Shown: in pieces, positions 1-11,496 of the stretch
Position numbering within the stretch: position 1 is the stretch's first letter
Layout of the letters: each line of letters opens with the position of its first letter
Assembly: GCA_046485165.1 (NCBI GenBank)
Contig: JAWOHM010000029.1
Location: 1-11,496, forward strand
Length of the DNA stretch: 11,496 nt
Direction: 5' to 3'
Source of the DNA: Thermoplasmata archaeon
Lineage (GTDB): Archaea; Thermoplasmatota; Thermoplasmata; SG8-5
The notes under the pieces: model-generated
Database searches by the model: none
What the model saw: only the letters and a program-made list of their open reading frames with translations
What the model was told of the DNA's origin: nothing
Position numbers and translations under genes: made by a program

Positions 1-356
1 GTAGTAGGTTGCTCATTGGGTCTGATGCAGACTGTCTCATAATCAATTGGCGCGAATAAACCTATCAGAATTACATCATATCCAGATAGACTAATCCAAT
101 TTGGAGATACTGTTCCCGCAAACAATAAGCGGTAACCATCTACCTTGAATTCATCAGGAAGATGCATTGGTGCATATGTCTCGCCATTATCTGTGATTAA
201 TAAGTAACCCCTAAAATCTAAAATTTGACGCCAAACGATTGTACCTGTGCCGGATATCTGTTTGTCAGCTGTCTGAGATTGTTGAGCATAAACACCAATA
301 ACCAATGCTGTGGTGATTAGAATTGCGACCAGCCAGATACTTATTAATCGTTTCAT
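1..356 (-). CDS. Partial hypothetical secreted protein. The N-terminal 118 codons read MKRLISIWLVAILITTALVIGVYAQQ..., a signal-peptide-like start. The 3' end lies beyond the window edge.
   Basis: An ATG sits on the minus strand at 356-354. I translated the frame by hand down to position 3 and found no stop. It is absent from the ORF track only because it is truncated by the window edge. The hydrophobic N-terminus looks like a signal peptide. The region is AT-rich, unlike the rest of the window. A TATA-like cattatataga lies about 35 nt upstream on the minus strand. Confidence 0.5.
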   Translation of the reverse strand, partial: MKRLISIWLVAILITTALVIGVYAQQSQTADKQISGTGTIVWRQILDFRGYLLITDNGETYAPMHLPDEFKVDGYRLLFAGTVSPNWISLSGYDVILIGLFAPIDYETVCIRPNEQPT

Positions 357-372
357 CTTCTACCTATAACAA

Positions 373-402
373 TAATGATTTCGTATCTATATAATGATTT
401 CG
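373..402. promoter_or_regulatory. Two copies of a 12-bp direct repeat ATAATGATTTCG (373-384 and 391-402) in the upstream region of the minus-strand secreted-protein gene. They overlap a TATA-like element.
   Basis: Exact 12-mer direct repeat read in the sequence. Its position matches the expected promoter of the ORF that starts at 356. Confidence 0.3.
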
Positions 403-440
403 GCAACCTACTATGCTATAGCCAGCACCCTCCGCTACGC

Positions 441-719
441 CAAGTGAATGCACAGGTGTGTATATAAATCCTGCGCCGCGGTCGCCTGATTTATTTCACC
501 TGTGTTTTTGCTCCCCGCCCCTTCGTTGTACTCGTGGTTCCTTCGCCGTAACGTTGGGAGAATGGTGGCTCGGAACCGTGCGCTTTGCTGGAATTACGGC
601 AGTACAGGTCGCAAAGCTCCGGCGAGGCATCACCAGTCGCTCACGTCAATTCTAAAGAAAGATCGTTTTCGCTCCAACTCTCTCCTTATACTGAAAAACA
701 AGTATGGCCAGTCGTTCGT
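441..719 (+). repeat. Copy 1 of a ~280-bp structured tandem repeat. It starts CAAGTGAATGCACA and carries the hairpin cacaggtg...cacctgtg followed by TTTTT.
   Basis: These blocks are shared with copy 2: caagtgaatgcaca, ctccccgNccc..cgttgtactNgtg, aaccgtgcgctttgctg and caggtcgcaaagctccggcgaggcatca. There is an internal stem gcgctttgc/gcaaagc. The small ORFs in the track here overlap each other in different frames and are probably not coding. Confidence 0.55.
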
Positions 720-934
720 CAAGTGAATGCACAAGGTCAGATAAATACCTTGTGGCATGACTCCCCGTCCCTGCGTTGTACTTGTGATTGCTCGGGTTAT
801 GCTTACACATCGACCCCTCGCAACCGTGCGCTTTGCTGTCTTAACGTCGTTGGCAGGTCGCAAAGCTCCGGCGAGGCATCAACGGGCCCTCTCGTCGAAC
901 ATATCAAAAGATAGTTCTCGGGCCAGCTTCGGTC
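720..934 (+). repeat. Copy 2 of the ~280-bp structured tandem repeat. The equivalent hairpin is cacaaggt...accttgtg, with compensatory changes relative to copy 1.
   Basis: Same conserved blocks as copy 1. The 5' hairpin arms differ between copies yet remain complementary within each copy (caggtg/cacctg versus caaggt/accttg). Confidence 0.55.
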
Positions 935-1000
935 GTCATGAGATTAACAAGGAGACATAATAATTCGTTCAACACGCAAAAAAATCAGTTGATAAGGGAA

Positions 1001-1201
1001 TTATCCCATAAATCGCATAATTTCTCGATCAACAGCGTAATAAATGCAATAGAGTATAAAGAGGATAATCAAAGTAACAATTATTGCCAGTATTGCCCTT
1101 GAAATAATTGATTTGAACTTGTATTTTTTTGCTTCAATAGGTACGGTATGCTCCTCGTTTTGAAATCTCATAACTTCCCTCGCCAAGTCACGTACTCCCA
1201 T
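1001..1201 (-). CDS. Hypothetical small protein (66 aa) with a C-terminal hydrophobic helix, in the AT-rich block.
   Basis: Complete ORF. On the minus strand a TATA-like ctatatata lies about 20-25 nt upstream of the ATG. There is no recognisable family, so coding is uncertain. Confidence 0.3.
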   Translation of the reverse strand: MGVRDLAREVMRFQNEEHTVPIEAKKYKFKSIISRAILAIIVTLIILFILYCIYYAVDREIMRFMG

Positions 1202-1243
1202 AATATCGTATTAGGTATATATAGCTTATATCTGCTTATATCA

Positions 1244-1326
1244 GCTAACATACCCCGCCCTTACAGACGAGGCTTGTAGCATATTATTGCCACGAGTCTG
1301 TAGGGAGTATGTTAGCTAACGCCGCG
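1244..1326. repeat. Long imperfect palindrome. The outer 11-bp arms are agctaacatac / gtatgttagct. The inner arms are acagac / gtctgt.
   Basis: Inverted repeats read directly in the sequence. They lie at the AT-rich/GC-rich composition boundary. Confidence 0.4.
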
Positions 1327-1483
1327 CGTGTCTCATTGTTATTATGGGGTACGTGACCGATGCCTCGTTTGAATTGCCTGGTATGTCTGCCAGGCAATAA
1401 AAATTCCCCGCCGGGAACGAGGTTCTACGCCGAGTTCAAAACTCGGCTAGCTCGCAACGAGGTTTCGTTGCTCGTGAACCCGT

Positions 1484-1680
1484 GAAGACTGGGGTCTTGG
1501 CGGTCTTCAGCCGCTCGCCATACCTGGCTTGGCTATCCCGGCATTTTTGGGTGCGTTAATTATATAAACCCTCGACAACATATATGTCCCTAGAGACTGG
1601 GGGTCTAACGGTATTCAGCCGACAATCGGCTACCAGGGTCCACCGCATACCCCAAATGCGGCCTTTCCTTTTAAACCTCT
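1484..1680 (+). ncRNA. Two related hairpin-rich segments. Each begins ga(a)gactgggg(g)tct and ends in an oligo-T run (ggcatttttgg at ~1541-1551; cctttcctttt at ~1665-1675). They are candidate small RNAs or transcription attenuators.
   Basis: Direct reading shows the stems gaagac/gtcttc, agccga/tcggct and ccgcat/atgcgg. A TATA-like ttaattatataaaccc at ~1557-1572 lies about 25 nt upstream of the second segment. There is no credible ORF on the + strand. Confidence 0.25.
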
Positions 1681-1749
1681 ATCCCAGGTCGCCGAAACTA
1701 CTTCCCCGCCGCAAGTATTATATGTAAGCCCCGTCATAACAGTACTTAC

Positions 1750-1953
1750 ATGCCTGACATCAAGTACAGCGCCCACGCCAGGAAGCGGATGGTGGAGCGC
1801 GGCATCTCGCCCGGGGAGGTGCGGGAGGCCATCAGCAAGGGCAGCAAGTCCCTGGACGGCAGCCTGATAACCTCCGTTCACCGGCACCTGAAGGTAGTGT
1901 TCCGGAGAATCAACGACGACTGGTATGTGATAACAGTGATGCTGAGGTGGTAG
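1750..1953 (+). CDS. DUF4258-family protein, a putative type II toxin (67 aa).
   Basis: The N-terminus MPDIKYSAHARKRMVERGISPGEVREAI matches the DUF4258 signature (I.YS.HA..RM.ERGIS..EV.E.). It is small and overlaps or abuts the downstream antitoxin-like gene. A TATA-like tattatat lies about 27-34 nt upstream, consistent with a leaderless transcript. Confidence 0.7.
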   Translation: MPDIKYSAHARKRMVERGISPGEVREAISKGSKSLDGSLITSVHRHLKVVFRRINDDWYVITVMLRW

Positions 1954-1955
1954 TG

Positions 1956-2288
1956 ATGAAGAAATGCCCGATATGCGGAAGAAGTGCCCTGAAAGAGGCA
2001 AAGGTCGAGGAGGAGATGTTCGGAGTGGGCCTGGGCCAGTACGATGCCGAGGTCTGCCAGAAGTGCGGAGAATCGTTCCTTGACCAGAGTGAGATGGAGA
2101 GGATGGAGGCCAGAGCCAAGGAGCTGGGGGTCTGGGGACTCGGAAAGCGCATCAAGGTGGTGAAATCAGGAAATTCCTTAAGCGTCCGAATTCCTGCACA
2201 GATAGCGGAATACCTGGACTTGACAGAGGGCAAGAGCGTATTCCTGTACCCGGACGGGAAGGACCGCATCGTCGTGGAAGTCAGTTGA
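1956..2288 (+). CDS. Putative antitoxin with an N-terminal YgiT/MqsA-type zinc ribbon (CPICG...CQKCGE) and a C-terminal AbrB/MazE/SpoVT swapped-hairpin domain (KVVKSGNSLSVRIPAQIAEYLDLTEGKSVFLYPDGKDRIVVEV).
   Basis: Motifs recognised by eye. GAGGTG at 1944-1949 is a ribosome-binding site 6 nt before ATG 1956. The alternative GTG start at 1947 given in the track overlaps the toxin stop. The final codon and stop (AGT TGA) are supplied by the first IS-type unit. Confidence 0.7.
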   Translation: MKKCPICGRSALKEAKVEEEMFGVGLGQYDAEVCQKCGESFLDQSEMERMEARAKELGVWGLGKRIKVVKSGNSLSVRIPAQIAEYLDLTEGKSVFLYPDGKDRIVVEVS

Positions 2289-2512
2289 ATGCAACATCCA
2301 GCAATTGAAAACAGCGCATTCGACGATGGCCCGTTAAAATATCCAAACTGAATCCAGGGCCATGTGACTCGAAACATTCTGCCAGCAATCGGTGCATTCG
2401 ATTCTAAATGCAAGCGATGTAGAGAATGCGCCATGGGTAGTCACTTTCCAAGCAAACACTCCCACTGCGAAAGGCCGGTAATCTGCAATCACCAAACAAT
2501 GAGATTACCGGG
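2283..2512 (+). mobile_element. IS200/IS605-type end unit A. It starts AGTTGAATGC and contains four hairpins: gaatgc/gcattc, atggccc/gggccat, gcattc/gaatgc and ccggtaatc/gattaccgg.
   Basis: Units B and C are homologous to it. The hairpin stems are conserved through compensatory substitutions. It lies next to tnpA. Confidence 0.6.
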
Positions 2513-2570
2513 GAAGAGCGTCTTCCTGTACCCGGACGGAAAGGATCGCATCGTTGTGGAAGTCGATTAG
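2510..2570 (+). pseudogene. Displaced 3' fragment of an AbrB-type antitoxin gene (…GKSVFLYPDGKDRIVVEVD*). It is a diverged duplicate of 2224-2285.
   Basis: About 90% nucleotide identity to the 3' end of the intact antitoxin gene. There is no start or N-terminal coding part. The N-terminal portion of track ORF 2364..2570 lies inside the repeat unit. Confidence 0.6.
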
Positions 2571-2626
2571 TACTTTCGCCCACCCCCTGTTCCGACTTAT
2601 ATACCCGCCTCTTCATAGCCCCACCC

Positions 2627-3040
2627 ATGAAAGCAGAACAGTGGGGAAGGAGGCACACGTCCAGCATGTTGACGGATCACATGGTCTTTACCACGAAATT
2701 CAGAGCGAAGGTGCTGGTCGGGAAGATCGCGGAGGACTGCGATGCCACAATCCGAAAAACATGCAAAAACCTGGACATCGAAATACTGCAAATGGCCGTG
2801 GCCGAGGACCATGTGCACCTGTTCGTGCAGCATCCCCCCGAATTAAGTCCCAGCAAGATGGCTGAGAAGGTGAAGAGCAATTCCAGCCGGGAACTCAGGG
2901 CGGCGCACCCAGAGCTGGTGAAATGGTGCAAAACAGGGCTGTGGGCGCCTGGGTGTTTCCATGGCAGTGTGGGGCACGGGTTCGATGTCGTCGAACAGTA
3001 TATCAAAGGCCAGCAAAAATACAGAAGAAACGATAGTTGA
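2627..3040 (+). CDS. tnpA: IS200/IS605-family Y1 (HuH) transposase TnpA (137 aa).
   Basis: Carries the HuH motif HVHLFV, the conserved DHMVFTTKFR block, and the catalytic-Tyr region VVEQYIKGQ near the C-terminus. Length is typical. A TATA-like cttatatacc lies about 25 nt upstream. The stop codon is supplied by AGTTGA of unit B. Confidence 0.9.
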   Translation: MKAEQWGRRHTSSMLTDHMVFTTKFRAKVLVGKIAEDCDATIRKTCKNLDIEILQMAVAEDHVHLFVQHPPELSPSKMAEKVKSNSSRELRAAHPELVKWCKTGLWAPGCFHGSVGHGFDVVEQYIKGQQKYRRNDS

Positions 3041-3261
3041 ATGCGAATGGTTACAAATAATTCCTTAGCATTCGACGATGGCGCGGCAACATTTAATAAC
3101 TAAATCAGCGCCATAAATTCACTTCATTTAGCAAACAAATGGTGAATGCGAATCTAAATCCAAAAAGAAAAGAGCATTCGCCCTGGGTAGTCATTTTAAA
3201 AACAAACATTCCCACTGCGAATGGCCGGTAATCGGCAATTTGCATGCAATGAGATTACCGG
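3035..3261 (+). mobile_element. IS200/IS605-type end unit B. It starts AGTTGAATGC and contains four hairpins: gaatgc/gcattc, atggcgc/gcgccat, gaatgc/gcattc and ccggtaatc/gattaccgg.
   Basis: Collinear with units A and C. It overlaps the last codon and stop of tnpA. Confidence 0.6.
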
Positions 3262-3461
3262 AATTAAGTCCCAGCAAGATGGCTGAGAAGGTGAAGAGCA
3301 ATTCCAGCCGGGAACTCAGGGCGGCGCACCCAGAGCTGGTGAAATGGTGCAAAACAGGGCTGTGGGCGCCTGGGTGTTTCCATGGCAGCGTGGGGCACGG
3401 ATTCGATGTGGTGGAGCAATACATCAAAGGCCAGCAATCATATAAACGATACGGTAGTTGA
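3262..3461 (+). pseudogene. Truncated tnpA covering only the C-terminal ~67 codons. It is fused directly to the terminal hairpin of unit B.
   Basis: The first ~135 nt are identical to tnpA 2838-2972, after which the sequence diverges. The HuH motif and N-terminal half are missing. The start codon of track ORF 3240..3461 lies inside the hairpin. Confidence 0.7.
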
Positions 3462-3681
3462 ATGCGTCTGTAATCTTTTGCCGGTAGAGCATTCAACCAT
3501 GGCGCGATAACAATCTGCAAACTAAATAAGCGCCATAAAACAACCATCAACTAAACAATTGGTGAATGCGAAAACTAAATCCAAACAGGAAAAAGCATTC
3601 GCCCTGAATCAACATTCTATAAATAAACAGATTCAAGAAATTTCGCCGTAATCGCCAATCTGGAATCGATGAGATTACGGC
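3456..3681 (+). mobile_element. IS200/IS605-type end unit C. It is the most diverged copy and its last hairpin is gccgtaatc/gattacggc.
   Basis: Same AGTTGAATGC start and the same four-hairpin layout with compensatory changes. It overlaps the stop of the tnpA fragment. Confidence 0.55.
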
Positions 3682-3776
3682 GAGAAACACTTTCGGTGAC
3701 CCCCCGTCAACCCTTTTATACCATTTCGAAGATAGGGGATGCAACCGATCACCGGTAAGAAAAAGGAAGTGATCCA

Positions 3777-5087
3777 ATGGCACAGAAATATGAGAAGGAC
3801 GTAAAGGATATTTTGAGCATCCTGGGCGAGGACGCGGACAGGAAAGAGATAGAGAAGGAATTGAAGAGCTACATCGAGGAATTCAGGCTTTCTGCCGTCG
3901 AGGCGAAGAAACTCGTGCTCAGAAAGCATGGGGCGGGAAGCGCCGCAGGGCCCGAGGCCATGGATAAGACCATCAAGGAACTCACGCCGATGGACAAGAA
4001 CGTCAATGTTCTTGGCCGGGTGCTGTTCGCGGCCGAGAAGGTAATCAAAGCCGACGGCAAGGAGAAGGCGATAATATCGGGCATACTGGGCGACGAGTCC
4101 GGAACCGTTCCGTTCACCCACTGGGAGAAGGGCGCGCTCAGCCTGGCCAAGGGCGACGTCATCCGGCTGGAGCATGCCTATGTGACCGAGTACAAGGACG
4201 AGCCGCAGCTGAACATCGGCAATCGTGGGAGAATCACGAAGCTGGACAAGTCAGAGATGCCCGAATACAAGGGCGCGGCATCCAGGCCTGCAAGGGCTTG
4301 CAAGGTGTCCGAGCTTGGCGAGGCTACAGGCAACATCTCGCTTGTCGCCCGCATCCTGGAGATGGAATCCAGGGAGGTGACGGTCAGCGGGGAGAAGAAG
4401 GACGTGCTGAGCGGCATAATGGCCGACGAAACCGGAAAGGTATCCTTCACCTGCTGGGGGAAGTGCAAGGTCAAGGAGGGGGACGTGGTTACGGTGCATA
4501 CCGGATACCTGAGAAGGTGGAGGGGCATGCCCCAGTTCAATTTTGACGCGGCCAATGCTGAAAAATCCGATGAGAAGATGCCGAAGAGCACGGAACTCCA
4601 GAAACCCTCGCTGGTGACAATCGAGCATCTGGCCAGGGTGGGGGGAATGGTCGACGCCTCCATTAACGGCGTGGTCCTGGACGTTCGCGAGGGCAGCGGC
4701 CTGGTGGAGAGATGCCCGGAGTGCAACCGGGTTCTCCAGAAAAGCGAGTGCCGGCTGCATGGCAAGGTCGAGGGAAAGGACGACCTCCGGGTCAAGGCGA
4801 TAGTGGATGACGGCACAGGCGCGATAAGCGCCATCATGGGCCGGGACATCACCGAGAAGCTGCTCGGGAAATCCATGGAAAAGTGCCTGAAGGAGGCGCA
4901 GAAGGCCATGAGCCGCGAGATTATCTGGGACCAGCTTTTCCAGAAACTTGTCGCAATGCCGGTCTGCGTATCCGGGAATGTCACATCCGACGACTTCGGG
5001 CTCATGCTCATTGCCACGTCCACCGAGTTCCTGAACGAGGACCCGCAGGACAGGGCCAGGAAGATGCTGGAAGAGGTGATGGAATGA
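3777..5087 (+). CDS. rpa: Replication protein A (RPA1-like) single-strand DNA-binding protein with three OB folds and a C4 zinc ribbon (CPECN...CRLHG).
   Basis: OB-fold repeats and a zinc ribbon typical of euryarchaeal RPA41/RPA70-like DBD-C. The ribosome-binding site is ggaagtgat. The stop overlaps the next start (ATGA), indicating translational coupling. Confidence 0.8.
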   Translation: MAQKYEKDVKDILSILGEDADRKEIEKELKSYIEEFRLSAVEAKKLVLRKHGAGSAAGPEAMDKTIKELTPMDKNVNVLGRVLFAAEKVIKADGKEKAIISGILGDESGTVPFTHWEKGALSLAKGDVIRLEHAYVTEYKDEPQLNIGNRGRITKLDKSEMPEYKGAASRPARACKVSELGEATGNISLVARILEMESREVTVSGEKKDVLSGIMADETGKVSFTCWGKCKVKEGDVVTVHTGYLRRWRGMPQFNFDAANAEKSDEKMPKSTELQKPSLVTIEHLARVGGMVDASINGVVLDVREGSGLVERCPECNRVLQKSECRLHGKVEGKDDLRVKAIVDDGTGAISAIMGRDITEKLLGKSMEKCLKEAQKAMSREIIWDQLFQKLVAMPVCVSGNVTSDDFGLMLIATSTEFLNEDPQDRARKMLEEVME

Positions 5088-6052
5088 AATCCAGGGAGAT
5101 AGCATGGAGGATGCTTGCGGGGGAACTGAACGATTCCTCGCTGGTTGTCACAAGCGATGAGGAGAGGGCGCCAACCTATGTCATAACGCCGCTGGGCGCC
5201 AAGGTGAACCGCGTGTACATCGTGGGCGTGGTCACAGACCTGGAGAACGTTGGCACCCCTGACGAGGCAAGGTGGAAGGCAAAAATAATAGACCCGACCG
5301 GCACCACATACGTTTCGGCCGGCCAGTTCCAGCCCGAAGCTGCAGCCGCGATGTCGAAACTATCCGTCCCGGGTTTCGCGGCGGTCATCGGCAAGGTCCG
5401 GGTCTATAGCCCAGAGGAGGGGGTCATGTACATCTCCATCCGCCCGGAGGTCGTGAGGGCCGTGGACAAGAACATACGGAACTCATGGGTGATGGACGCC
5501 TGCGCCTCCCTGAAGCAGAGGCTGGAGGCGAACTCGGAAGCCAGCAAGATGGATGGAATAAGCGCAGAAGGGCTCGCAAGCCTGGGCTTCAGCCAGAACC
5601 TTGCGGAAGGCATTGTCTCCGCAAGGGAGCATTATGGCGAGGACATCCCCCTGGAAAAATATCAATCGATGCTCATCGATTCCCTGAGGTCCCTCATTCC
5701 CGAGGAGGGGGGCGCGCCTGACCTCCCGGAACCGGAAGAGGCAAAAGAGCCGGAGCCGGACGATTACGATGAGTTCGAGGAGAGCGTGGACATCCCGCCA
5801 ACCCCACCAGTGGCGCAAGATGAGCCGGCCGGGAAGGTGGAGTCCGACGAAGAACTGACCGACGATGAGGAAAAACTGCTCAAGGTCATAACCGCCGAGG
5901 ACCCGAAAACCGCAGGCCTGGACTGGGACATGCTTGCTAAAGCGGCCAAGAAGGCCGGGCTTAAAAAGGAAGCTTTCGAGGAAGCCATAGAAGGATTGCT
6001 GGACAAGGGCCTGATATACGAGCCGATGCTGGGGAAGATCCGCAAGATATGA
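5084..6052 (+). CDS. RPA2/RPA32-like subunit with an N-terminal OB fold, an acidic linker and a C-terminal winged-helix domain.
   Basis: An OB-fold-like block VNRVYIVGVVTDLENVG..., a long Asp/Glu/Pro linker and a C-terminal wH-like helix. Coupled to rpa by the ATGA overlap, with AGGTGA 5 nt upstream. The track's longer ORF from 4883 is an in-frame upstream extension overlapping rpa and is rejected. Confidence 0.65.
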   Translation: MKSREIAWRMLAGELNDSSLVVTSDEERAPTYVITPLGAKVNRVYIVGVVTDLENVGTPDEARWKAKIIDPTGTTYVSAGQFQPEAAAAMSKLSVPGFAAVIGKVRVYSPEEGVMYISIRPEVVRAVDKNIRNSWVMDACASLKQRLEANSEASKMDGISAEGLASLGFSQNLAEGIVSAREHYGEDIPLEKYQSMLIDSLRSLIPEEGGAPDLPEPEEAKEPEPDDYDEFEESVDIPPTPPVAQDEPAGKVESDEELTDDEEKLLKVITAEDPKTAGLDWDMLAKAAKKAGLKKEAFEEAIEGLLDKGLIYEPMLGKIRKI

Positions 6053-6155
6053 TGGTTGAACCATAAATATCGGGATGGATGGCATTTCCGGGCATTCCCG
6101 CCCAACCTTAATATACTTGATTATTGATATTCATAAAAAAAAATGAGGCGAGGAT

Positions 6156-6503
6156 ATGAGAAAGAACGACATCATGTACTACGTGGGATGGTTCACCCTG
6201 CTGATATTGCTGGGCGTGTGGATGCTGGTTTGGGCCCTTGGAGCGGCGAGGATGGGTGAGGCGTTCCTGCTCTGGCTCATGAGCGCCGGAATATTGCTGA
6301 TAATCATCAGTTTCGTTTCCGGGCCCAGGGGAATCTCGAGCTTCCTGCTCGGCGCCGGGCTGGCGCTGACAGTCTTCACGCTGATATTGCTGGGCATAGC
6401 CAGCAACATCCTGGGCGGGCTCGTGGGCACGGCCGTCGGAATAATTTTAATAGGCATCATTGGATTGGCATTGCTGTTCAGAAACATCAGAGTGGAGGCA
6501 TGA
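6156..6503 (+). CDS. Small integral membrane protein of 115 aa with 3-4 predicted transmembrane helices.
   Basis: Strongly hydrophobic segments. It is the first gene of a tightly packed operon whose stop is followed by the next start after 2 nt. Confidence 0.55.
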   Translation: MRKNDIMYYVGWFTLLILLGVWMLVWALGAARMGEAFLLWLMSAGILLIIISFVSGPRGISSFLLGAGLALTVFTLILLGIASNILGGLVGTAVGIILIGIIGLALLFRNIRVEA

Positions 6504-6505
6504 AA

Positions 6506-7039
6506 ATGACTGACTTGAGGGACAAGGTGGAATCTGACCGCGGCATCATCAAGATGATACAGCTGGTCATACCGGGCTACAGGGGATACAGGATAAAGGA
6601 GGACCTGAGGATAGCGGACAGGCTGCTCAGGGAGGAGCTGGCGAACAGGCTGGGCGTTGCCGAGAAGGGCTTCGAGGGCGCGAGGAAGGCCATTGCGAAG
6701 CGCAATGCCATCGACCTGATAGAGGACATCGGCGAATTGGTCATCAGGACCCACACGGCAATCGACAGGCTGAGGCATGCTGAGCAGGGATACACGGGCA
6801 TATCCCCGGACTACCGCATCAAGGAAGCGGAACTGAACAACATGTACGAGTGGGACCTCAGGCTGCTGAACCTCATCGAAGGGCTGATGAAGATAGCCAA
6901 CAACCTGAAGGACACTGCCAGGACCATGCCGGAACCGGACATCGCCCTGGAGTTGACGAACGCCATCCAGGCCATCGAGGATTACGAGACTATATTCGAC
7001 CAGAGAAGGGAGGCCTTCGCCGGCCTCACGATAGGGTGA
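6506..7039 (+). CDS. Hypothetical alpha-helical / coiled-coil protein of about 177 aa.
   Basis: The start at 6506 is preferred because GGAGG at 6494-6498 gives ideal ribosome-binding-site spacing. The ATG at 6500 in the track is an in-frame alternative. The sequence is rich in Arg/Glu/Leu heptad-like segments. I recognise no family with confidence. Confidence 0.6.
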   Translation: MTDLRDKVESDRGIIKMIQLVIPGYRGYRIKEDLRIADRLLREELANRLGVAEKGFEGARKAIAKRNAIDLIEDIGELVIRTHTAIDRLRHAEQGYTGISPDYRIKEAELNNMYEWDLRLLNLIEGLMKIANNLKDTARTMPEPDIALELTNAIQAIEDYETIFDQRREAFAGLTIG

Positions 7040-7043
7040 TAAC

Positions 7044-8183
7044 ATGGTATTCAGCAGAGGAAGGAGCAAGGACGGGGACGTTGCCAGGAACACATACACC
7101 TGGCCCAATGAGTACAAGGGCGAGAACATAATGTACAGGCTGCCCACGAACATCTATTACAACGACAACATCATCGTCATGGAGGACGAGTTCGCGGTGT
7201 TCCTGAGGGACGGGAAGGCCATGCATGTGTTCGACCAGGCCGGGCGCTACGCGCTCACAACCCAGAACGTGCCGATACTCAGGGAGATATTGCCAAAGCT
7301 CACCGGCGTCAAACAGCTGGGAGAGGTTTACTATATCCAGAGGCGCGAGCTGAGGGGAAAGTTCGGCACACCGGAGCCGCTGACATTCAGGGACGCGGAT
7401 TTCGGCCTAGTCCGATTGAGGGTGTTCGGCCAGTTCTCCTACAAGGTGGTGGAGCCGATGCTGTTCATCACGCAGTTCGTGGGCACCAGGGGCTGGTCCG
7501 GCTCGGACGAGGTCATAGAATGGCTGAGGAGCGAGCTCATCCAGAGCGTCAACGATGTCCTGGGCGAGCTGAAGAGGGACAAGAACATGGCAGTCGTGGA
7601 CATGCCGGCCTATGTCAATGAGATTGAGCAGCTCATCCTGGGCAAGATAGACAACGAGGCGAAGAGGTACGGCCTTGACATAACCAATCTGGCTGGCATC
7701 ACAATCACACCGCCTCCGGAAGTGCAGGCTGCAATCGATCGCAGGGGAGCGATGGGCGCCCTTGGCGTCAATTACATGGAATACCAGACCGGAAAGGCCA
7801 TCGAGGGCGTGGGCGAGGGCGCGGCCAAGGGCGGCGGGAATGCGACCGCCGCAATGGCTGGCCTGGGAGCCGGCGCCGGCATTGGCATCGGCATGGGCGG
7901 AGCCATGGGCCAGGGCATGCAGCAGGGCAGTTCCCAGAAGCAGGTCATGGTGAAATGCCAGGAGTGCGGCGCGCTTGTCGCGGAGGACGCAAAATTCTGC
8001 AAGGAATGCGGCAAATCCATGGTGAAAGCCGGCACCGTTAAATGCCCGAAGTGCGGCGATGCCAATACTCCAGATGCAAAATTCTGCGATGAGTGCGGCG
8101 CGCCAATGAAGGTCAAGTGCCCGAAGTGTGGTAAGGAACAGGCCGGGGCGAAGTTCTGCAATGAGTGCGGAACGCAGTTGTAA
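7044..8183 (+). CDS. SPFH/Band-7-like protein (Band_7_1, YdjI-like). It has a Gly/Met/Ala-rich linker and three C-terminal zinc-ribbon repeats (KCPKCG...AKFCxECG).
   Basis: The N-terminal region resembles B. subtilis YdjI. A low-complexity G/M/A/Q linker is followed by zinc ribbons, as in YdjI. The ribosome-binding site is GGTGA. Confidence 0.65.
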   Translation: MVFSRGRSKDGDVARNTYTWPNEYKGENIMYRLPTNIYYNDNIIVMEDEFAVFLRDGKAMHVFDQAGRYALTTQNVPILREILPKLTGVKQLGEVYYIQRRELRGKFGTPEPLTFRDADFGLVRLRVFGQFSYKVVEPMLFITQFVGTRGWSGSDEVIEWLRSELIQSVNDVLGELKRDKNMAVVDMPAYVNEIEQLILGKIDNEAKRYGLDITNLAGITITPPPEVQAAIDRRGAMGALGVNYMEYQTGKAIEGVGEGAAKGGGNATAAMAGLGAGAGIGIGMGGAMGQGMQQGSSQKQVMVKCQECGALVAEDAKFCKECGKSMVKAGTVKCPKCGDANTPDAKFCDECGAPMKVKCPKCGKEQAGAKFCNECGTQL

Positions 8184-8281
8184 GAGCCCCGGTCCAACTG
8201 CCTGCAAGGGCATTGAATCCTGGCTACCGTCCAACCAAAGGACCGCACCCCGGCACCGGCCATACCGTCAAATCTACAATA

Positions 8282-9241
8282 TCACAGCTTCAGCTCGTAG
8301 TGGACGTTCTCCTGCTCCACCCTGTAGCCCATGGAAAGGTATAGTGAAAGGGCTTTGCTGTTCTGGGCCTCCATGCCCAGGTACAATATGTCCATGCCCT
8401 GCCCGCGGAGCCATGTCATAGAGTCAGTCAGCAACGCGCGGCCCAGCCCCAGCCGCCTGTGGGGTTTCTTCACGCCGAGGATGTTGGTCCATCCCGCCTT
8501 CTTGTTGTTCTGCTCGTTGTATCTCAATTCGATCGCGTAAAAACAGACGCCCGCAATCTCCCCGCCCTTGGTGGTTGTGGTGAGCCAGTATATGCCATCC
8601 TTCGCTTTGATGGTCTCGTCCCTGACCTTGATGAACCTGTCCTCGGGGATGGCTGAGAAATTCCAATGGTCCTGAAAGGAATCATTGAATGCCCTGATGA
8701 ACTCCTTCAATTCATCGTCAGAGCATTCCAGCATGTTCTTTCTGGATAGGGAGTATCCATCAGGCAACGCCGGGGTTGGGCTGGAAAGGGGCTTGTCGCA
8801 TATCATCAGGTAGCCATGCCTTATGTCCTTCATTCCCTGCCTGATTGCGAAATCGTTTCTCCAGCCGGATGGCTCGGGTGCCCAATACCTGAGGGATTCG
8901 ATGCCTCTGGCTCTGAGATATTCTGCGGTTAGATTGAAAATGTGCTCCTCGATGCCCTTGCCCCTCAATTCCGGAACAATGAACAAACTCACCTGCGCAT
9001 CCTTGATGCCGCTCTCGAATCTGGATTTTGATATCATGGAACCACCGAAGGCCACCGGGGTGTCACCGTCAAACCCAATCAGGTAGCCGGCAGGGTCGAA
9101 GTCCTTCTCCCCGAACAGCCAGGTGCGCATGTTCTCCACTGTATCCTCAACGTGGTGCCTCAGTTCTCTTGTGCTGCGATTGATGACATCTATCATGGCC
9201 TCCGCATCGGCCTCGGTCGGATGGCGGTACTCAATGTCCAT
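8282..9241 (-). CDS. GNAT-family N-acetyltransferase with two tandem acetyltransferase domains.
   Basis: Duplicated acetyl-CoA-binding-like motifs (e.g. RGKGIEEHIF... and RRLGLGRALL). The start at 9241 (MDIEYRHPTEADAEAM) is preferred, because the in-frame upstream extension to 9340 runs through the repeat-rich intergenic region. Confidence 0.8.
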   Translation of the reverse strand: MDIEYRHPTEADAEAMIDVINRSTRELRHHVEDTVENMRTWLFGEKDFDPAGYLIGFDGDTPVAFGGSMISKSRFESGIKDAQVSLFIVPELRGKGIEEHIFNLTAEYLRARGIESLRYWAPEPSGWRNDFAIRQGMKDIRHGYLMICDKPLSSPTPALPDGYSLSRKNMLECSDDELKEFIRAFNDSFQDHWNFSAIPEDRFIKVRDETIKAKDGIYWLTTTTKGGEIAGVCFYAIELRYNEQNNKKAGWTNILGVKKPHRRLGLGRALLTDSMTWLRGQGMDILYLGMEAQNSKALSLYLSMGYRVEQENVHYELKL

Positions 9242-9281
9242 GAGACCGGGGTATTCTCTCCGGAATAAAATAATTGCCGGA

Positions 9282-9420
9282 GGATTGGCGATTTTAGATT
9301 TAGGGATTTTAGATTTTAGATATAACGAGCTGGCCGTCAATTACGGCCAGCTAATCTAACCACTTGGCAGGCGATTTCCTGGCACAAATCTACAATCTAA
9401 AATCGAAAATCTACAATAGC
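9282..9420. promoter_or_regulatory. Repeat-rich intergenic region containing arrays of GATTTTAGAT, a perfect hairpin agctggccg-tcaatta-cggccagct, and inverse copies ATCTAAAATC / AAATCTACAAT.
   Basis: Read directly in the sequence. It lies between the htpX stop and the GNAT start on the minus strand. On the minus strand the T-rich tagattt tracts could act as an archaeal terminator, and the stretch could also hold GNAT promoter elements. Confidence 0.4.
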
Positions 9421-9443
9421 AGAAGCAAACATATTCCAGCAAG

Positions 9444-10481
9444 CTAAATCCGCTTGTAAATATCCCCGCCAATCCCGCCGTGCTTCAGGTCCTTCTCCAT
9501 CTCCTTGAGGTTCTGGATGCGCTTGAATGTGGACGGGTGGGTGGACGCGACCTCGCTGTGGCGCCGGCGCTTTGCCTCCTCCTCCATGGCCAGCATCAGC
9601 TCCTTCTCGTCCAGGACGCCGTCGCCGTCCAGGTCGTACCTGTTCTTGTTCTGCATGATGGACCCTATCTCCTTCTTGGCGGACAGGGGATCGCCTATGT
9701 AGAACGAACGCGCTGCGCCGGGCTGGTCCTTGGATATTGAAAGGCCATAAGTAATCTTGGCCAGGGCGGAGCTGAGGCTGTGCGGGTCGTTGGTCGCCAC
9801 TGCGGAGAAAGCGTCGGCGTAAAACTCCCTCTGCCTGGAGAGTCTGAGTATCATGAGCTGGGAGATGACATAAACGGCAAAGCCGATGAGGGCTGCGACG
9901 ATTATCGCCCCGCCTGAGTTCCGGCTGCGGCCCCCGCCGCTCCACAGCACCGAGCGGGCCAGCATGTACGCCAGAATGGGGACGACGCTGACCACGGTCA
10001 TGATGGCCATGTCGTTGTGCTTTATGTGGCCTATCTCATGCGCCAGAACGCCCTTTATCTCGTCCTTGTTGAGCTGCTCCAGCAGGCCGACGTGCACTGC
10101 CAGTGTCGCCGAGTTCTTGGAACGGCCGAACACGAATGCGTTGGGGCTTCTGTCCGGGGAGACGGCCAGCGCAGGCATCGGGACCCCGGACTTCTGGCAC
10201 AGCTCCCTCACGGCGTTCTCGAGAAACGGATTTTCTCCGGGCTTCAGGTATCTGAGCCGGGAGGACCAGCGGATTATGCCGGGGGAGATGGCCCACTGGA
10301 ACAGGACGAAGAGGGTGGTGATGAATATTATCACGATTATCTGGAACCAGAAAGGGATGAAGGCTCCGGCCATGTACCACTGGATGAGCGTGCTTATGAC
10401 AATCAGAAGGGCGAAAAGCATGCCGAATATGAGAATCAGTGTCAGAGCCATGCTCCGCTTCAGCGCCCCAAGCGATGCCAT
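9444..10481 (-). CDS. htpX: HtpX-family M48 zinc metalloprotease (HEIGH motif, multi-transmembrane) with a C-terminal EF-hand-like calcium-binding loop (DLDGDGVLDEKE).
   Basis: The motif AHEIGHIKHND, N-terminal transmembrane helices, and a canonical 12-residue EF-hand loop near the C-terminus. Confidence 0.85.
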   Translation of the reverse strand: MASLGALKRSMALTLILIFGMLFALLIVISTLIQWYMAGAFIPFWFQIIVIIFITTLFVLFQWAISPGIIRWSSRLRYLKPGENPFLENAVRELCQKSGVPMPALAVSPDRSPNAFVFGRSKNSATLAVHVGLLEQLNKDEIKGVLAHEIGHIKHNDMAIMTVVSVVPILAYMLARSVLWSGGGRSRNSGGAIIVAALIGFAVYVISQLMILRLSRQREFYADAFSAVATNDPHSLSSALAKITYGLSISKDQPGAARSFYIGDPLSAKKEIGSIMQNKNRYDLDGDGVLDEKELMLAMEEEAKRRRHSEVASTHPSTFKRIQNLKEMEKDLKHGGIGGDIYKRI

Positions 10482-10524
10482 GAAAAAGGTTTATACCCAT
10501 CGGACTTATATTCTTATCGGTAAA
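10482..10524. promoter_or_regulatory. Compact divergent promoter region. tttataccc is a TATA-like box for the + gene, and aatataag on the opposite strand is a candidate for htpX.
   Basis: The TATA-like motifs resemble those upstream of tnpA (cttatatacc) and rpa (cttttatacc). They sit roughly -25/-30 from the respective start codons. Confidence 0.35.
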
Positions 10525-11235
10525 ATGCCTGAAATAGTCCAGAAACTGAGCTGCCCTGATTGCGGGGGACCGCTGAAGGTCCAGGCAGGCGACGCCATAG
10601 TGACCTGTGGTTACTGCGGTTCGGATGTCAACCTCGCGGTCGGCTCGAAATATTTTCTCAAGCACAGCATCATCCCGCCGAAGATAGGCCTCGATTCCAT
10701 TGACGCTGTGATTAAGGCTTGGATGGGCAGCGGCTTCCTCAAGCCGGATGACCTGGCCAGGAAGCACAGGGTGGTGAGCAAGGAACTGCAGATCCTGCCG
10801 CTGTTCATAGTCAATGCGATTGCCAAATCCGAGTACCAGGGAGAGCTGACCAGGACTGGATACCCGACGCCAAAAAGCGGGACCCTGGAAAAAGAGTATT
10901 ACTGGAAGGTGCTGGGCAGGCGGGCTTCCGCATTCCCCACCAGGGCATACGAGGTGCCGCTGGCCGCCAAGGCGGATTTCGAGATATCCAGGCTGGTCCC
11001 GGGGGCGAATTTCCTCAATTCCGAGATGGACGAGGCCGAGGCCATAAACATCGCCAAGCAGGAGATGGAAGCACATCACAGGTTCCTGCTGGAGAAGGAG
11101 CTGGATGTCATCTCCAGCCTGAGCACTTCATATGATGTCAGGAACACGGAGTTCCTTCACGTTCCGGCATGGTTCATCACCTACCAGTACAACGGGAAGA
11201 TGTACAATCTGATTCTGGACGGCGCGACTGGCTAG
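10525..11235 (+). CDS. Hypothetical protein of 236 aa with an N-terminal zinc ribbon (CPDCGG...CGYCGS). No family recognised.
   Basis: Long ORF with a CxxC...CxxC N-terminus. The start at 10525 is chosen because the upstream in-frame ATG at 10480 overlaps the htpX start codon on the other strand. The track's start at 9886 is antisense to htpX and is rejected. Confidence 0.55.
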   Translation: MPEIVQKLSCPDCGGPLKVQAGDAIVTCGYCGSDVNLAVGSKYFLKHSIIPPKIGLDSIDAVIKAWMGSGFLKPDDLARKHRVVSKELQILPLFIVNAIAKSEYQGELTRTGYPTPKSGTLEKEYYWKVLGRRASAFPTRAYEVPLAAKADFEISRLVPGANFLNSEMDEAEAINIAKQEMEAHHRFLLEKELDVISSLSTSYDVRNTEFLHVPAWFITYQYNGKMYNLILDGATG

Positions 11236-11300
11236 GATGTGAAGGCCGACATTCCCCAGAAGGGCAAGGGCCTGCTGGGCGGGCTTTTCGGAGGCTGAAG

Positions 11301-11489
11301 ATGTCAGAGAAACTGTTGCAGCACAAGCATTGCAGGAACTGCGAGAGGGCCATCAACCTGAAGGACGATTACTGCGGCCCGGAATGCCAGGCCCAGCACC
11401 AGACGATGCTGAGAAGGAAGCGCAACCAGTTGTACATACTCATGGCCATAGCCATGGGCCTGATGCTGGTGACGCTGATGATAGGTTGA
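11301..11489 (+). CDS. Small zinc-ribbon membrane protein of 62 aa with the HKHC..C...CGPEC motif, a basic stretch and a C-terminal transmembrane helix. It looks DUF2116-like.
   Basis: GGAGG lies 8 nt upstream of the ATG. The CxxC/CxxxC pair is followed by a hydrophobic helix. The track's start at 11169 overlaps the previous gene out of frame and is rejected. Confidence 0.5.
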   Translation: MSEKLLQHKHCRNCERAINLKDDYCGPECQAQHQTMLRRKRNQLYILMAIAMGLMLVTLMIG

Positions 11490-11496
11490 ACATGAC

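Follow-up and report, generated by a model that had tools for sequence, protein, structure and literature searches.

To our knowledge, no platform that stockpiles and shuffles single-gene cassettes is well understood except the integrons, and these require a tyrosine recombinase. We also know of no domesticated Y1 transposases with repeats of their own apart from those of the REP/RAYT systems or REPtrons (repetitive extragenic palindromes, REP, and REP-associated tyrosine transposases, RAYT). The archaeal integrons reported so far contain a canonical IntI and canonical attC sites (PMC9668308). RAYTs form class 2 of the Y1 enzymes and have been reported only from bacteria, while the reports from archaea are of typical transposases of the insertion sequence (IS) IS200 only (PMC6006769). 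In this study we analysed a stretch of 11,496 nucleotides from a Thermoplasmata archaeon (GTDB lineage SG8-5; GenBank assembly GCA_046485165.1, contig JAWOHM010000029.1, positions 1 to 11,496 of the forward strand, which is the whole contig), referred to below as the window. Near its left end it carries two tandem structured repeats, which a preliminary description made from the sequence alone had interpreted as possibly paired non-coding RNAs (ncRNAs), a cis-regulatory element or the ends of a mobile element. The two repeats are non-coding members of a large hairpin-rich family, which we name E elements, and the finding is larger than that description proposed. Comparison with related loci suggests that E elements could be promoter-bearing boundaries of gene cassettes and at the same time single-stranded DNA (ssDNA) substrates of a Y1 transposase, forming an integron- or REPtron-like platform for gene capture and expression; we give this reading about an even chance of being correct.

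Results

The E-element family

The tandem arrangement of the two copies is borne out, as each of them opens with CAAGTGAATGCACA (441-454 and 720-733). They share 78% column identity in a pairwise alignment, with a 29-nt insertion within the 5' hairpin loop of copy 1, and a repeat search of the window places the conserved blocks at 605-679/854-928 and 511-542/761-792. The unit of ~280 bp given in the preliminary description corresponds to the 279-nt period, but the conserved element itself measures ~237 nt (441-677) in copy 1 and 207 nt (720-926) in copy 2; the period comprises element plus linker, because 42 nt at 678-719 form a separate conserved linker. The complementary arms of the 5' hairpin (cacaggtg 452-459/cacctgtg 497-504 in copy 1 and cacaaggt 731-738/accttgtg 747-754 in copy 2), the common stem gcgctttgc/gcaaagc (580-588/611-617 and 828-836/860-866) and the tatataaat of the copy-1 loop (461-469) were found as described. 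A TTTTT does follow the copy-1 hairpin (505-509), but it is not conserved in the wider family.

Searches for further copies were productive, with many found in metagenomes, with profiles and at related loci (our locus numbers begin with L). More than 100 E copies occur across the related loci examined, 207-260 nt in length and typically ~230 nt. Of the 22 stretches obtained from a metagenome scan, 17 contain true E copies; the 11.8-kb contig L022, with seven exact-word matches, later proved to hold at least ten copies by nhmmer. An nhmmer profile built from 39 copies detected 83 copies in the loci collected by then, 14 further matches beside homologous transposase genes (L036-L039) and 11 diverged matches in two more distant genomes (L041 and L042). 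The viral contigs scanned for E sequence gave no match.

A scan of representative genomes with an exact 20-mer led to nine loci, one of them a true relative. This locus, L005 (DHFN01000049.1), is an 8-kb contig with three E copies and low-GC cassettes of archaeal type that has been binned as 'Anaerolineales bacterium UBA4823' and is probably a mis-binned Thermoplasmata fragment; it has N-runs inside the repeats, as expected of assembly gaps at repeats. The other eight loci were rejected as E relatives, as they carry an unrelated in-frame insert in genes of the candidate phyla radiation (CPR) and of other bacteria. The insert, the 32-nt GACCCGCCTTCGCAAAGCTCCGGCGAGGCAAG, lies within seemingly unrelated, unannotated coding sequences of Saccharibacteria, Paceibacterota and a Chthoniobacterales metagenome-assembled genome (MAG) (L001 1490-1530, L002 590-630, also L004, L006 and L009). 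Its 20-mer overlap with E is a matter of chance, and the sequence may represent a small mobile insertion in CPR bacteria.

No Rfam family was matched, either by Rfam 15 at gathering thresholds in the window and in nine loci (one of which, L005, has E copies) or at E<=10 over positions 380-1000, where only chance-level matches appeared. A tRNA/tmRNA search of the window found none, and exact record look-ups with the window proteins gave no match. The literature, searched with incomplete coverage by E sequence strings and by topic (archaeal integrons, Thermoplasmata repeats and miniature inverted-repeat transposable elements (MITEs), HUH/IS200, RAYT/REPIN), yielded no description. Even on the most conservative reading, the E elements are a covariation-supported family that is absent from Rfam and, within the literature searched, undescribed.

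Structure, covariation and coding capacity

The boundaries of E are ..CC|AAGTGAATGC at the 5' end, where AAGTGAATGC is a conserved tag, and ..GCTCCAG| at the 3' end, and the 5' flank ends almost always in (C)GCC or CCCC. RNAalifold and pair counts support the helices H1, H3 and H4 and a smaller helix between H1 and H3. The 5' hairpin H1 begins ~10 nt from the 5' end and comes in at least four sequence types, all of them with an A/T-rich loop, and the 3' hairpin H4 stops ~5 nt from the 3' end. Among the variants of the central hairpin H3 are GCGCTTTGC/GCAAAGC, ..TTTTC/GAAAA.., ..TTTGT/ACAAA.., GCGAAAACC/GGTTTTC and GCGGATTGC/GCAATCC. In an alignment of 65 distinct copies, both-side changes occur in six of seven H1 pairs, in eight of nine H3 pairs and in 22 pairs overall. 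Paired cells make up 93.4%, compared to 35-45% once the partners are shifted by 1-3 columns; for the covariation score the values are 0.253 and, in the control, ~0.055. None of 500 shuffles reached the observed covariation score, the paired-cell percentage or the both-side-change counts of pairs and of cells; the count of further pair types, matched by 98 of the 500, was the sole measure so matched. The covariation is far beyond chance, and the selected secondary structure that had been postulated from the two window copies is upheld by the family as a whole.

Conserved blocks of this kind might be fragments of a protein-coding gene or pseudogene, and indeed mechanical open reading frames (ORFs) cross the repeat region and a translated motif (..PARHH..) recurs in the ORF lists of other loci. 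However, the 39- and 65-copy alignments contain many indels of 1, 2 and 29 nt with no frame kept, and the stem substitutions are compensatory and not synonymous. The frame-breaking indels rule out a protein-coding E, so that coding fragments have practically no probability left and the ORFs called in this region deserve no more credence than the preliminary description gave them.

Strong covariation in four helices would equally be expected of a structured ncRNA on the + strand, for example a multi-copy regulatory or guide RNA, perhaps acting with Y1 like bridge, omega or seek RNAs. A predicted long-range pairing GUGAAUGC/GCAUCAC, which is invariant and hence carries no covariation signal, agrees with this, and so does one pair alternating between U-G (39 sequences) and C-G (26 sequences), which fits the + strand only. 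Moreover, variable arms beside the core are complementary to distal cassette ends and could be used by a guide-like RNA. G-U cells exceed A-C cells by 93 to 38, but 39 of the G-U cells stem from the one alternating pair; without it the ratio is 54:38, the pairs split 16:14 and neither folding strand is favoured. The well-supported helices are without exception local palindromes, for which DNA of either strand folds equally well. Besides the lack of an Rfam match, no conserved + strand promoter was seen upstream, where a neighbouring coding sequence starts 11-25 nt away, nor a conserved + strand T-run terminator downstream. Single-sequence stability is unremarkable, and such folding is uninformative because the z-scores are weak on both strands (-0.8 to -2.1). 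The paired ncRNAs of the preliminary description thus find no support as stated, and an RNA function of E appears unlikely.

Cassette arrays, the terminal site N1 and the Y1 module

In these uncultured Thermoplasmata, E copies are organised in chromosomal arrays of the general layout housekeeping genes - (E - cassette)n - N1 - (N2, DUF4258, ZnR-MazE) - Y1 transposase - U, in which N1, N2 and U are conserved non-coding sequences and ZnR-MazE is a zinc-ribbon protein. At every multi-copy locus the E copies lie on one strand and the intervening genes almost always on the other. The arrays begin directly beside housekeeping genes, such as those of an aspartate/ornithine carbamoyltransferase-family protein (L018), PolD DP2 (L023) or TP_methylase (L033), and have a GC content of ~0.40 compared to 0.55-0.65 in the flanking housekeeping genes. 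Their cargo comprises toxin-antitoxin (TA) pairs (ParE/RelE, MazE/AbrB, PIN, HicAB), small membrane proteins and secreted repeat proteins (PKD, fn3, beta-helix), and it varies among close relatives at one locus (window, L033, L022). Dispersed solo E copies were not seen in long housekeeping stretches (L018 1-7300, L020, L033 10-21 kb).

N1 is 84-88% identical in L033, L039, L022 and L037, 77% in L036 and 75% in L028. Its junction CGCC|AAGTCACG and the GCCCC|AAGTGAATGC of E have |AAGT in common, and in the alignment ordinary cassette flanks abut N1 at AAGT. Because of the shared junction and the abutting flanks, N1 appears to take the place of a terminal E, and we propose that it is an attI-like partner of the E elements. 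The relation between N1 and E consists of the shared junction and the layout only; a sensitive nhmmer search for diverged E in the N region (1150-1760) and the U units gave nothing beyond a ~30-nt weak match at the start of U2. The N2 block holds two similar GACTGGGG(G)TCT..GCGGT.TTCAGCCG segments. Positions 1366-1415 (TTGAATTGCCTGG..GCCAGGCA..TTCCCCGCC) look like the 5' part of E by eye and were not detected in the profile search.

The Y1 protein has an intact HuH motif (DHVH) and catalytic Tyr (QYIKGQ), as judged from its alignment with the structures of the IS608 and Sulfolobus TnpA proteins. Since most homologue clusters among the top-ranked matches comprise 1-5 contigs each, this Y1 clade is not multi-copy. 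An orthologue with 82% identity precedes the RPA gene at the corresponding position in L033, a 355-kb contig, and the genomic contexts of six further homologues were compared. Array, N1 and Y1 occur together beside RPA (window, L033), AAA_16/Msr genes (L036, L037) and Lactamase_B/Thi4 (L039, L040), and in these three settings the order is E array - N1 - N2 - DUF4258 - ZnR-MazE - Y1 - U; the module shares the strand of E and thus points away from the cassette genes. In L041 and L042, whose Y1 proteins are 62-64% identical, Y1 is flipped and the TA-like pair is missing; an N1-like sequence and diverged E with cassettes still directly adjoin. Across five chromosomal contexts and two Y1 orientations, array, N1 and Y1 follow one another in this order, and N1 adjoins each array end for which a Y1 gene is visible. 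The Y1 homologue of an ANME-2c archaeon (anaerobic methanotroph; L043, 59% identical), which served as negative control, has no E copies around it.

Among the initial suggestions, the ends of an IS-related mobile element came closest, given the synteny with an IS200-type Y1 gene and the weak likeness of the first ~30 nt of E to the hairpin after the Y1 stop codon. The two copies are not the two ends of one IS, however, as each of them is self-contained and punctuates a cassette array. The motif (G/T)TGAATGC, together with a hairpin, is common to E and the unit after the Y1 gene, and the rest of this U unit is unrelated. No recognisable IS left end was found at the Y1 gene.

A proposed promoter within the 5' hairpin

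Read on the gene strand, the H1 loops contain ATTTATATA, CCTTATATCC, TATTTATC, TATTTACA or TATTTAYC, preceded by a purine-rich arm (e.g. CGAAAGG) and followed by the conserved GCATTCACTTGG(GGG). These loop motifs resemble the evident promoters of the organism itself at 2597, 3712 and 1716, upstream of the Y1, RPA and DUF4258 genes. In 20 of 59 elements an ORF on the opposite strand has its ATG 11-50 nt outside the 5' end of E, in 11 of these at a distance of 11-25 nt, and there is therefore no room for another promoter in that interval. We infer that the H1 loop is the promoter of the adjacent cassette gene, with a B recognition element (BRE) and TATA box, a transcription start near CACTT|GG, and GCATTCACTTGG(GGG) between the TATA box and the start. 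The cis-regulatory role considered in the preliminary description would thereby be retained in an unexpected form, the loop tatataaat being a TATA box on the opposite strand for the neighbouring cassette gene. In many E subfamilies a T-run occurs on the gene strand within the H4 loop, which would make a plausible terminator of archaeal type for the cassette that precedes.

Elements of this make-up could simply be transcriptional insulators spread by gene conversion, with Y1 as an unrelated resident IS. The TATA-like loop is correctly placed for the next gene, the T-run recurs in the H4 loop of many subfamilies, and IS200 copies are common in archaea. Yet a conserved, covarying core of ~150 nt between the putative terminator and promoter is needless for an insulator, and an unrelated IS accounts neither for the constant Y1-N1-array order in five contexts and two Y1 orientations, nor for the E junction in N1, nor for a Y1 gene without recognisable IS left end. 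A mere insulator is therefore a very unlikely explanation.

Cassette ends and cassette exchange

The 60 nt after one element and the 60 nt before the next are complementary to each other, with a median local score of 21 compared to 12 for non-adjacent ends (Mann-Whitney p=1e-23, n=59). The two flanks of one and the same element gave no such signal (p=0.45), which rules out terminal inverted repeats formed by the flanks of E itself. The duplexes start at the element boundaries and consist of 9-14 perfect bp within imperfect stems of 25-45 bp. The two arms lie at correlated distances from their boundaries (r=0.84), and a constant shift reflects an anchor placed ~9 nt 3' of CCAG; the dyad axis therefore coincides with the junction that joining of the cassette ends would create. 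An inverted repeat of its own closes each cassette. A bulge-helix-bulge splicing motif at the cassette ends was rejected, as the duplexes have no consistent 3-4-3 geometry.

A RelE-type TA cassette is ~93% identical between L018 and L020, while the E copies on either side are ~70% identical and belong to genome-specific subtypes; the stretch of high identity runs from CCAG|G to within CCAAGTGAATGCGAAAGG. Judged from such breakpoints, cassettes appear to be exchanged without the flanking E copies, although gene conversion of E may account for the pattern as well. In Ga0180732, a single genome from a metagenome, the E cores are near-identical and the H1, H3 and H4 types occur in all combinations, which indicates recombination or gene conversion among E copies. 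At the cassette ends of the L042 array a further repeat (..CCGAGCAGGTGGGTGAGCGTAGCGAGGGGGCCAGCG..) lies beside diverged E (11899-11942, 15936-15979, 17544-17587 and 19027-19070; related families D8 and D9), and similar tails, ..CCGCTCCTCCGCTGGCCCTTGGCT..CCAACCCCCTGCTCGGAGCGG.., occur in L021, L023 and L018. With this repeat type, cassette ends may possess a second recurrent module.

These data also bear on the possibility that E is a selfish, non-autonomous element of the IS200/IS605 type, similar to palindrome-associated transposable elements (PATEs) or REPs, which is copied by Y1. The arrays would then be pile-ups at a preferred target, the 'cassettes' no more than DNA left between insertions, and the promoter a by-product. 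Its hairpins, which lie on one strand close to either end, the absence of terminal inverted repeats and of target duplications, a 5' flank ending in (C)GCC or CCCC like a fixed target, and the strict strand orientation would all fit such an element. The same can be said of the near-identical cores in Ga0180732, which look as after a burst, of the tandem E-E pairs and of the nearby Y1 gene. However, insertions of a selfish element should leave unrelated ends on the segments between them, and these ends are inverted repeats centred on a junction. Furthermore, in two genomes one and the same cassette has different E copies as neighbours, its breakpoints coinciding exactly with the E boundaries, and E copies are clustered, with array ends that abut N1 on the Y1 side and with no solo copies in the housekeeping stretches checked. 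We consider the selfish element unlikely, though not to be neglected.

Features of the window

The positions of E, N1, N2, U and the Y1 module in the window are given in Table 1. The cassette gene at the left end has a GC content of ~0.40 compared to 0.55-0.60 in housekeeping genes, and a Pfam search with its product found no family. The flank between this gene and E copy 1 has a TATA-like box of its own (cattatatag on the - strand), and the recurrent flank class GGGCACTCCTCCGCTACGCC is found in many other cassettes. The linker between the two copies also joins tandem copies in L016, L025, L027 and L021 and may represent an 'empty' junction. In the last cassette the likely start codon lies 13 nt inside the boundary, and the cassette is bounded by an 8-bp inverted repeat, ATGAGATT (938-945)/AATCTCAT (1164-1171), 11 and 13 nt from the boundaries.

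Table 1. Positions of the cassettes, E elements, terminal sites and Y1 module in the window
Feature	Position	Strand	Basis and remarks
Cassette gene, 5'-truncated by contig end	1..356	-	ORF; ATG at 356; secreted or membrane protein, 118+ aa
5' flank of E copy 1, right end of left-hand cassette	357..440		Ends in type-A flank motif CCCTCCGCTACGCC
E copy 1 core, CAAGTGAATGC to GCTCCAA	441..677	+	nhmmer 438-695, E=8e-50; family alignments
Hairpin H1 of copy 1, long type	450..505	+	Loop tatataaat (461-469) reads ATTTATATA on the - strand, TATA-box-like
Hairpin H3 of copy 1, CCGTGCGCTTTGC ... GCAAAGCTCCGG, then invariant GGCGAGGCATCA	576..622	+	Family covariation
42-nt linker between tandem E copies	678..719		Small ATACT/AGTAT hairpin
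E copy 2 core	720..926	+	nhmmer 718-942, E=3e-50; short H1 729-755 (loop cagataaat), H3 824-871
Last cassette of array, small membrane-protein gene	927..1184	-	Stop at 1001, likely start ATG 1171
N1, conserved non-coding terminal site	1185..1330	+	Junction CGCC|AAGTCACG, TATA-rich stretch, ACCCCGCCC, long imperfect palindrome
N2, second conserved non-coding block between array and Y1 module	1475..1700	+	74-78% identical in L039, L022, L036, L038
DUF4258 gene, toxin-like, first in module	1750..1953	+	Pfam PF14076, E=1.3e-10; same position in L036, L037, L039, L040
Gene of zinc-ribbon + MazE/AbrB-type DNA-binding protein, antitoxin-like, second in module	1947..2288	+	Pfam PF04014; conserved synteny
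U1	2283..2509	+	Starts AGTTGAATGC (supplies stop codon), ends in hairpin CCGGTAATC..GATTACCGG; repeat comparison
IS200-type Y1 (HUH) transposase gene	2627..3040	+	Pfam Y1_Tnp, E=1.8e-28
U2, directly after Y1 stop codon	3034..3257	+	Conserved, covarying hairpins after Y1 in L033, L037, L039, L040
Tandem duplicate: last 209 nt of Y1 gene (3258-3466, 93% identical) and third U (3460-3680)	3258..3680	+	Repeat spacing 421; tblastn

U units and local duplications

The U unit is a conserved non-coding sequence of ~215 nt that opens with (A)GTTGAATGC exactly at the Y1 stop codon and, in the window, also at the stop codon of the MazE-like gene. Its four or five hairpins covary between loci, it occurs in relatives (L033 9686-9910, L037 3715-3940, L039 2388-2590), and it gave no match to Rfam. 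Possibly U constitutes the right end of an ancestral IS, or else serves the Y1 protein as a second structured partner.

Inserted pieces at these loci are repeatedly flanked by long direct duplications of the preceding sequence. In the window, 55 bp of the 3' end of the MazE-like gene are duplicated around U1 (2228-2282/2510-2564) and 209 bp of the Y1 gene end around U2 (2837-3045/3258-3466), with an analogous partial duplication in L037 (3991-4164). A promoter-like ACTTTC..TTTATA(T)ACC of ~35 nt before Y1 (~2570-2606) is found again after Y1 or before RPA (~3685-3720). Around the PIN TA pair of L033, ~50-100 nt of N2 are duplicated (8346-8446/9167-9217), and L042 has a further direct duplication of this kind (9943-9975/10431-10463). 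The duplications suggest a copy-and-join or template-switch process.

Elsewhere in the window, the A/T-rich intergenic region 9283-9421, between two - strand genes (GNAT acetyltransferase and M48 peptidase), contains nested inverted repeats of GATTTTAGAT. The three tandem repeats of 72-87 nt at 7950-8171 encode zinc-ribbon modules at the C-terminus of an SPFH/Band-7 protein (7044-8183).

Discussion

All functional steps discussed here rest on the comparative sequence analysis of MAGs and metagenome contigs. Each E would drive the next cassette via the H1 promoter and often terminate the previous one via the T-run of H4. Its multi-hairpin core, together with the junctions ..CC|AAGT.. (5' end of E, and N1) and ..CCAG| (3' end of E), would be the ssDNA substrate of the HUH/Y1 enzyme. 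Cleavage of the IS200/IS605 type at the 3' end of one E and the 5' end of the next would release the cassette as a single-stranded circle, whose inverted repeat would fold up and place the joint at the tip of a hairpin. Such an excision would leave a tandem E-E junction, for which positions 441-926 of the window may be an example, and the reverse reaction would capture cassettes, with the Y1 transposase taking the place of the tyrosine recombinase. In its strongest form this would be a categorically new archaeal 'HUH integron', in which a domesticated Y1 would move hairpin-closed single-stranded cassettes at E ends and N1 and the E promoter would drive the next cassette; we offer this form tentatively, as possible but somewhat doubtful.

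Several points weigh against the role of E as promoter-bearing boundary and Y1 substrate. The H1 and H4 stem sequences vary within one genome, and IS200/IS605 transposases normally read the sequence of a hairpin as well as its shape. E resembles the Y1-adjacent hairpins over ~30 nt only, and weakly (nhmmer E=0.049 in a 1.3-kb search), and of the arrays in L018, L023, L029, L020 and L005 only the end distant from any Y1 gene is in view. In about two thirds of the cassettes the 5' flank is longer and in some cases itself provides a TATA-like box, so not every cassette needs the promoter of E. The GUGAAUGC/GCAUCAC pair and the U-G/C-G alternation would also suit a + strand RNA. Finally, the homogeneity of E within a genome could result from a recent transposition burst of E instead of gene conversion.

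If the proposal is true, an archaeal system that joins the logics of integron and REPtron, in which a Y1/HUH enzyme, long structured repeats and hairpin-closed cassettes with many TA and surface-protein genes are found side by side, would represent an independent invention of cassette capture and would account for the hypervariable islands of low GC content in the genomes of Thermoplasmata. Tools for DNA-protein coupling and genome writing already make use of HUH enzymes, and E ends, N1 and cassette palindromes would in this case be tractable ssDNA substrates for biochemistry.

With IS200/IS605 elements and their derivatives (PATEs and MITEs), the locus shares the transposase family, subterminal hairpins on one strand of E, the lack of terminal inverted repeats and target-site duplications, and a short conserved sequence 5' of the left end of E. 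Unlike in IS200/IS605, however, the Y1 gene is single-copy and syntenic and has no recognisable IS left end. In contrast to PATEs and MITEs, the E hairpins do not appear to be copies of the gene-side hairpins, and it is the segments between E copies, not E, that behave as exchangeable units. The locus also differs from TnpB/IscB systems, in which the omega-RNA occupies the 3' end of the tnpB/iscB gene and draws its guide from the neighbouring flank, as no OrfB_IS605-type protein occurs among the top 25 of 68 families (124 array-locus ORFs) or in the locus gene lists.

The likeness to REPtrons, in which REPs form bacterial interspersed mosaic elements (BIMEs) or REPINs beside a RAYT gene, lies in a single- or low-copy, vertically inherited Y1 gene flanked by lineage-specific, intergenic clusters of hairpin repeats. 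Correspondingly, our Y1 gene is low-copy, has an orthologous position in relatives and lies beside E arrays. But REPs have 20-40 nt and a GTAG or CGTC tag, whereas E is ten times longer (~230 nt), has the 5' tag AAGTGAATGC, occurs in one orientation, delimits cassettes and carries a putative promoter. The window Y1 is class-1-like (DHVH, QYIKGQ) and aligns best with IS608 and the Sulfolobus IS200-type TnpA, while RAYTs have class 2 motifs such as DHLH and YIHYNP.

The comparison with integrons has two sides as well. An integrase of the Phage_integrase type was found neither in the window proteins, nor among the top 25 of 68 families (124 array-locus ORFs), nor in the Pfam lists of L032-L043; the only recombinase-like gene in these protein sets is Y1_Tnp. 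An attC site is a single imperfect hairpin of ~55-140 nt, R''(RYYYAAC)/L''...L'/R'(GTTRRRY), whereas E has 207-260 nt, at least four helices and other boundary motifs. Moreover, the repeat appears to stay behind when cassettes of the E arrays move, each cassette has a terminal inverted repeat of its own, and each E appears to carry a promoter, while integron cassettes are mostly promoterless. On the other hand, a co-oriented array extends from a primary site beside a recombinase-like gene in the window and in L022, L033, L036, L037, L039, L041 and L042. As in integrons, especially the sedentary chromosomal ones such as the Vibrio superintegron with its Vibrio cholerae repeats (VCR), the cassettes are co-oriented, compositionally foreign and rich in TA and small unknown genes, and between them lie structured repeats, which are homogeneous in any one genome. 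The terminal site N1 shares a short core junction with these repeats and adjoins the recombinase-like gene, the Y1 gene of window-type loci is divergent from the cassettes, and, again as in integrons, close relatives differ in the array content at the same locus.

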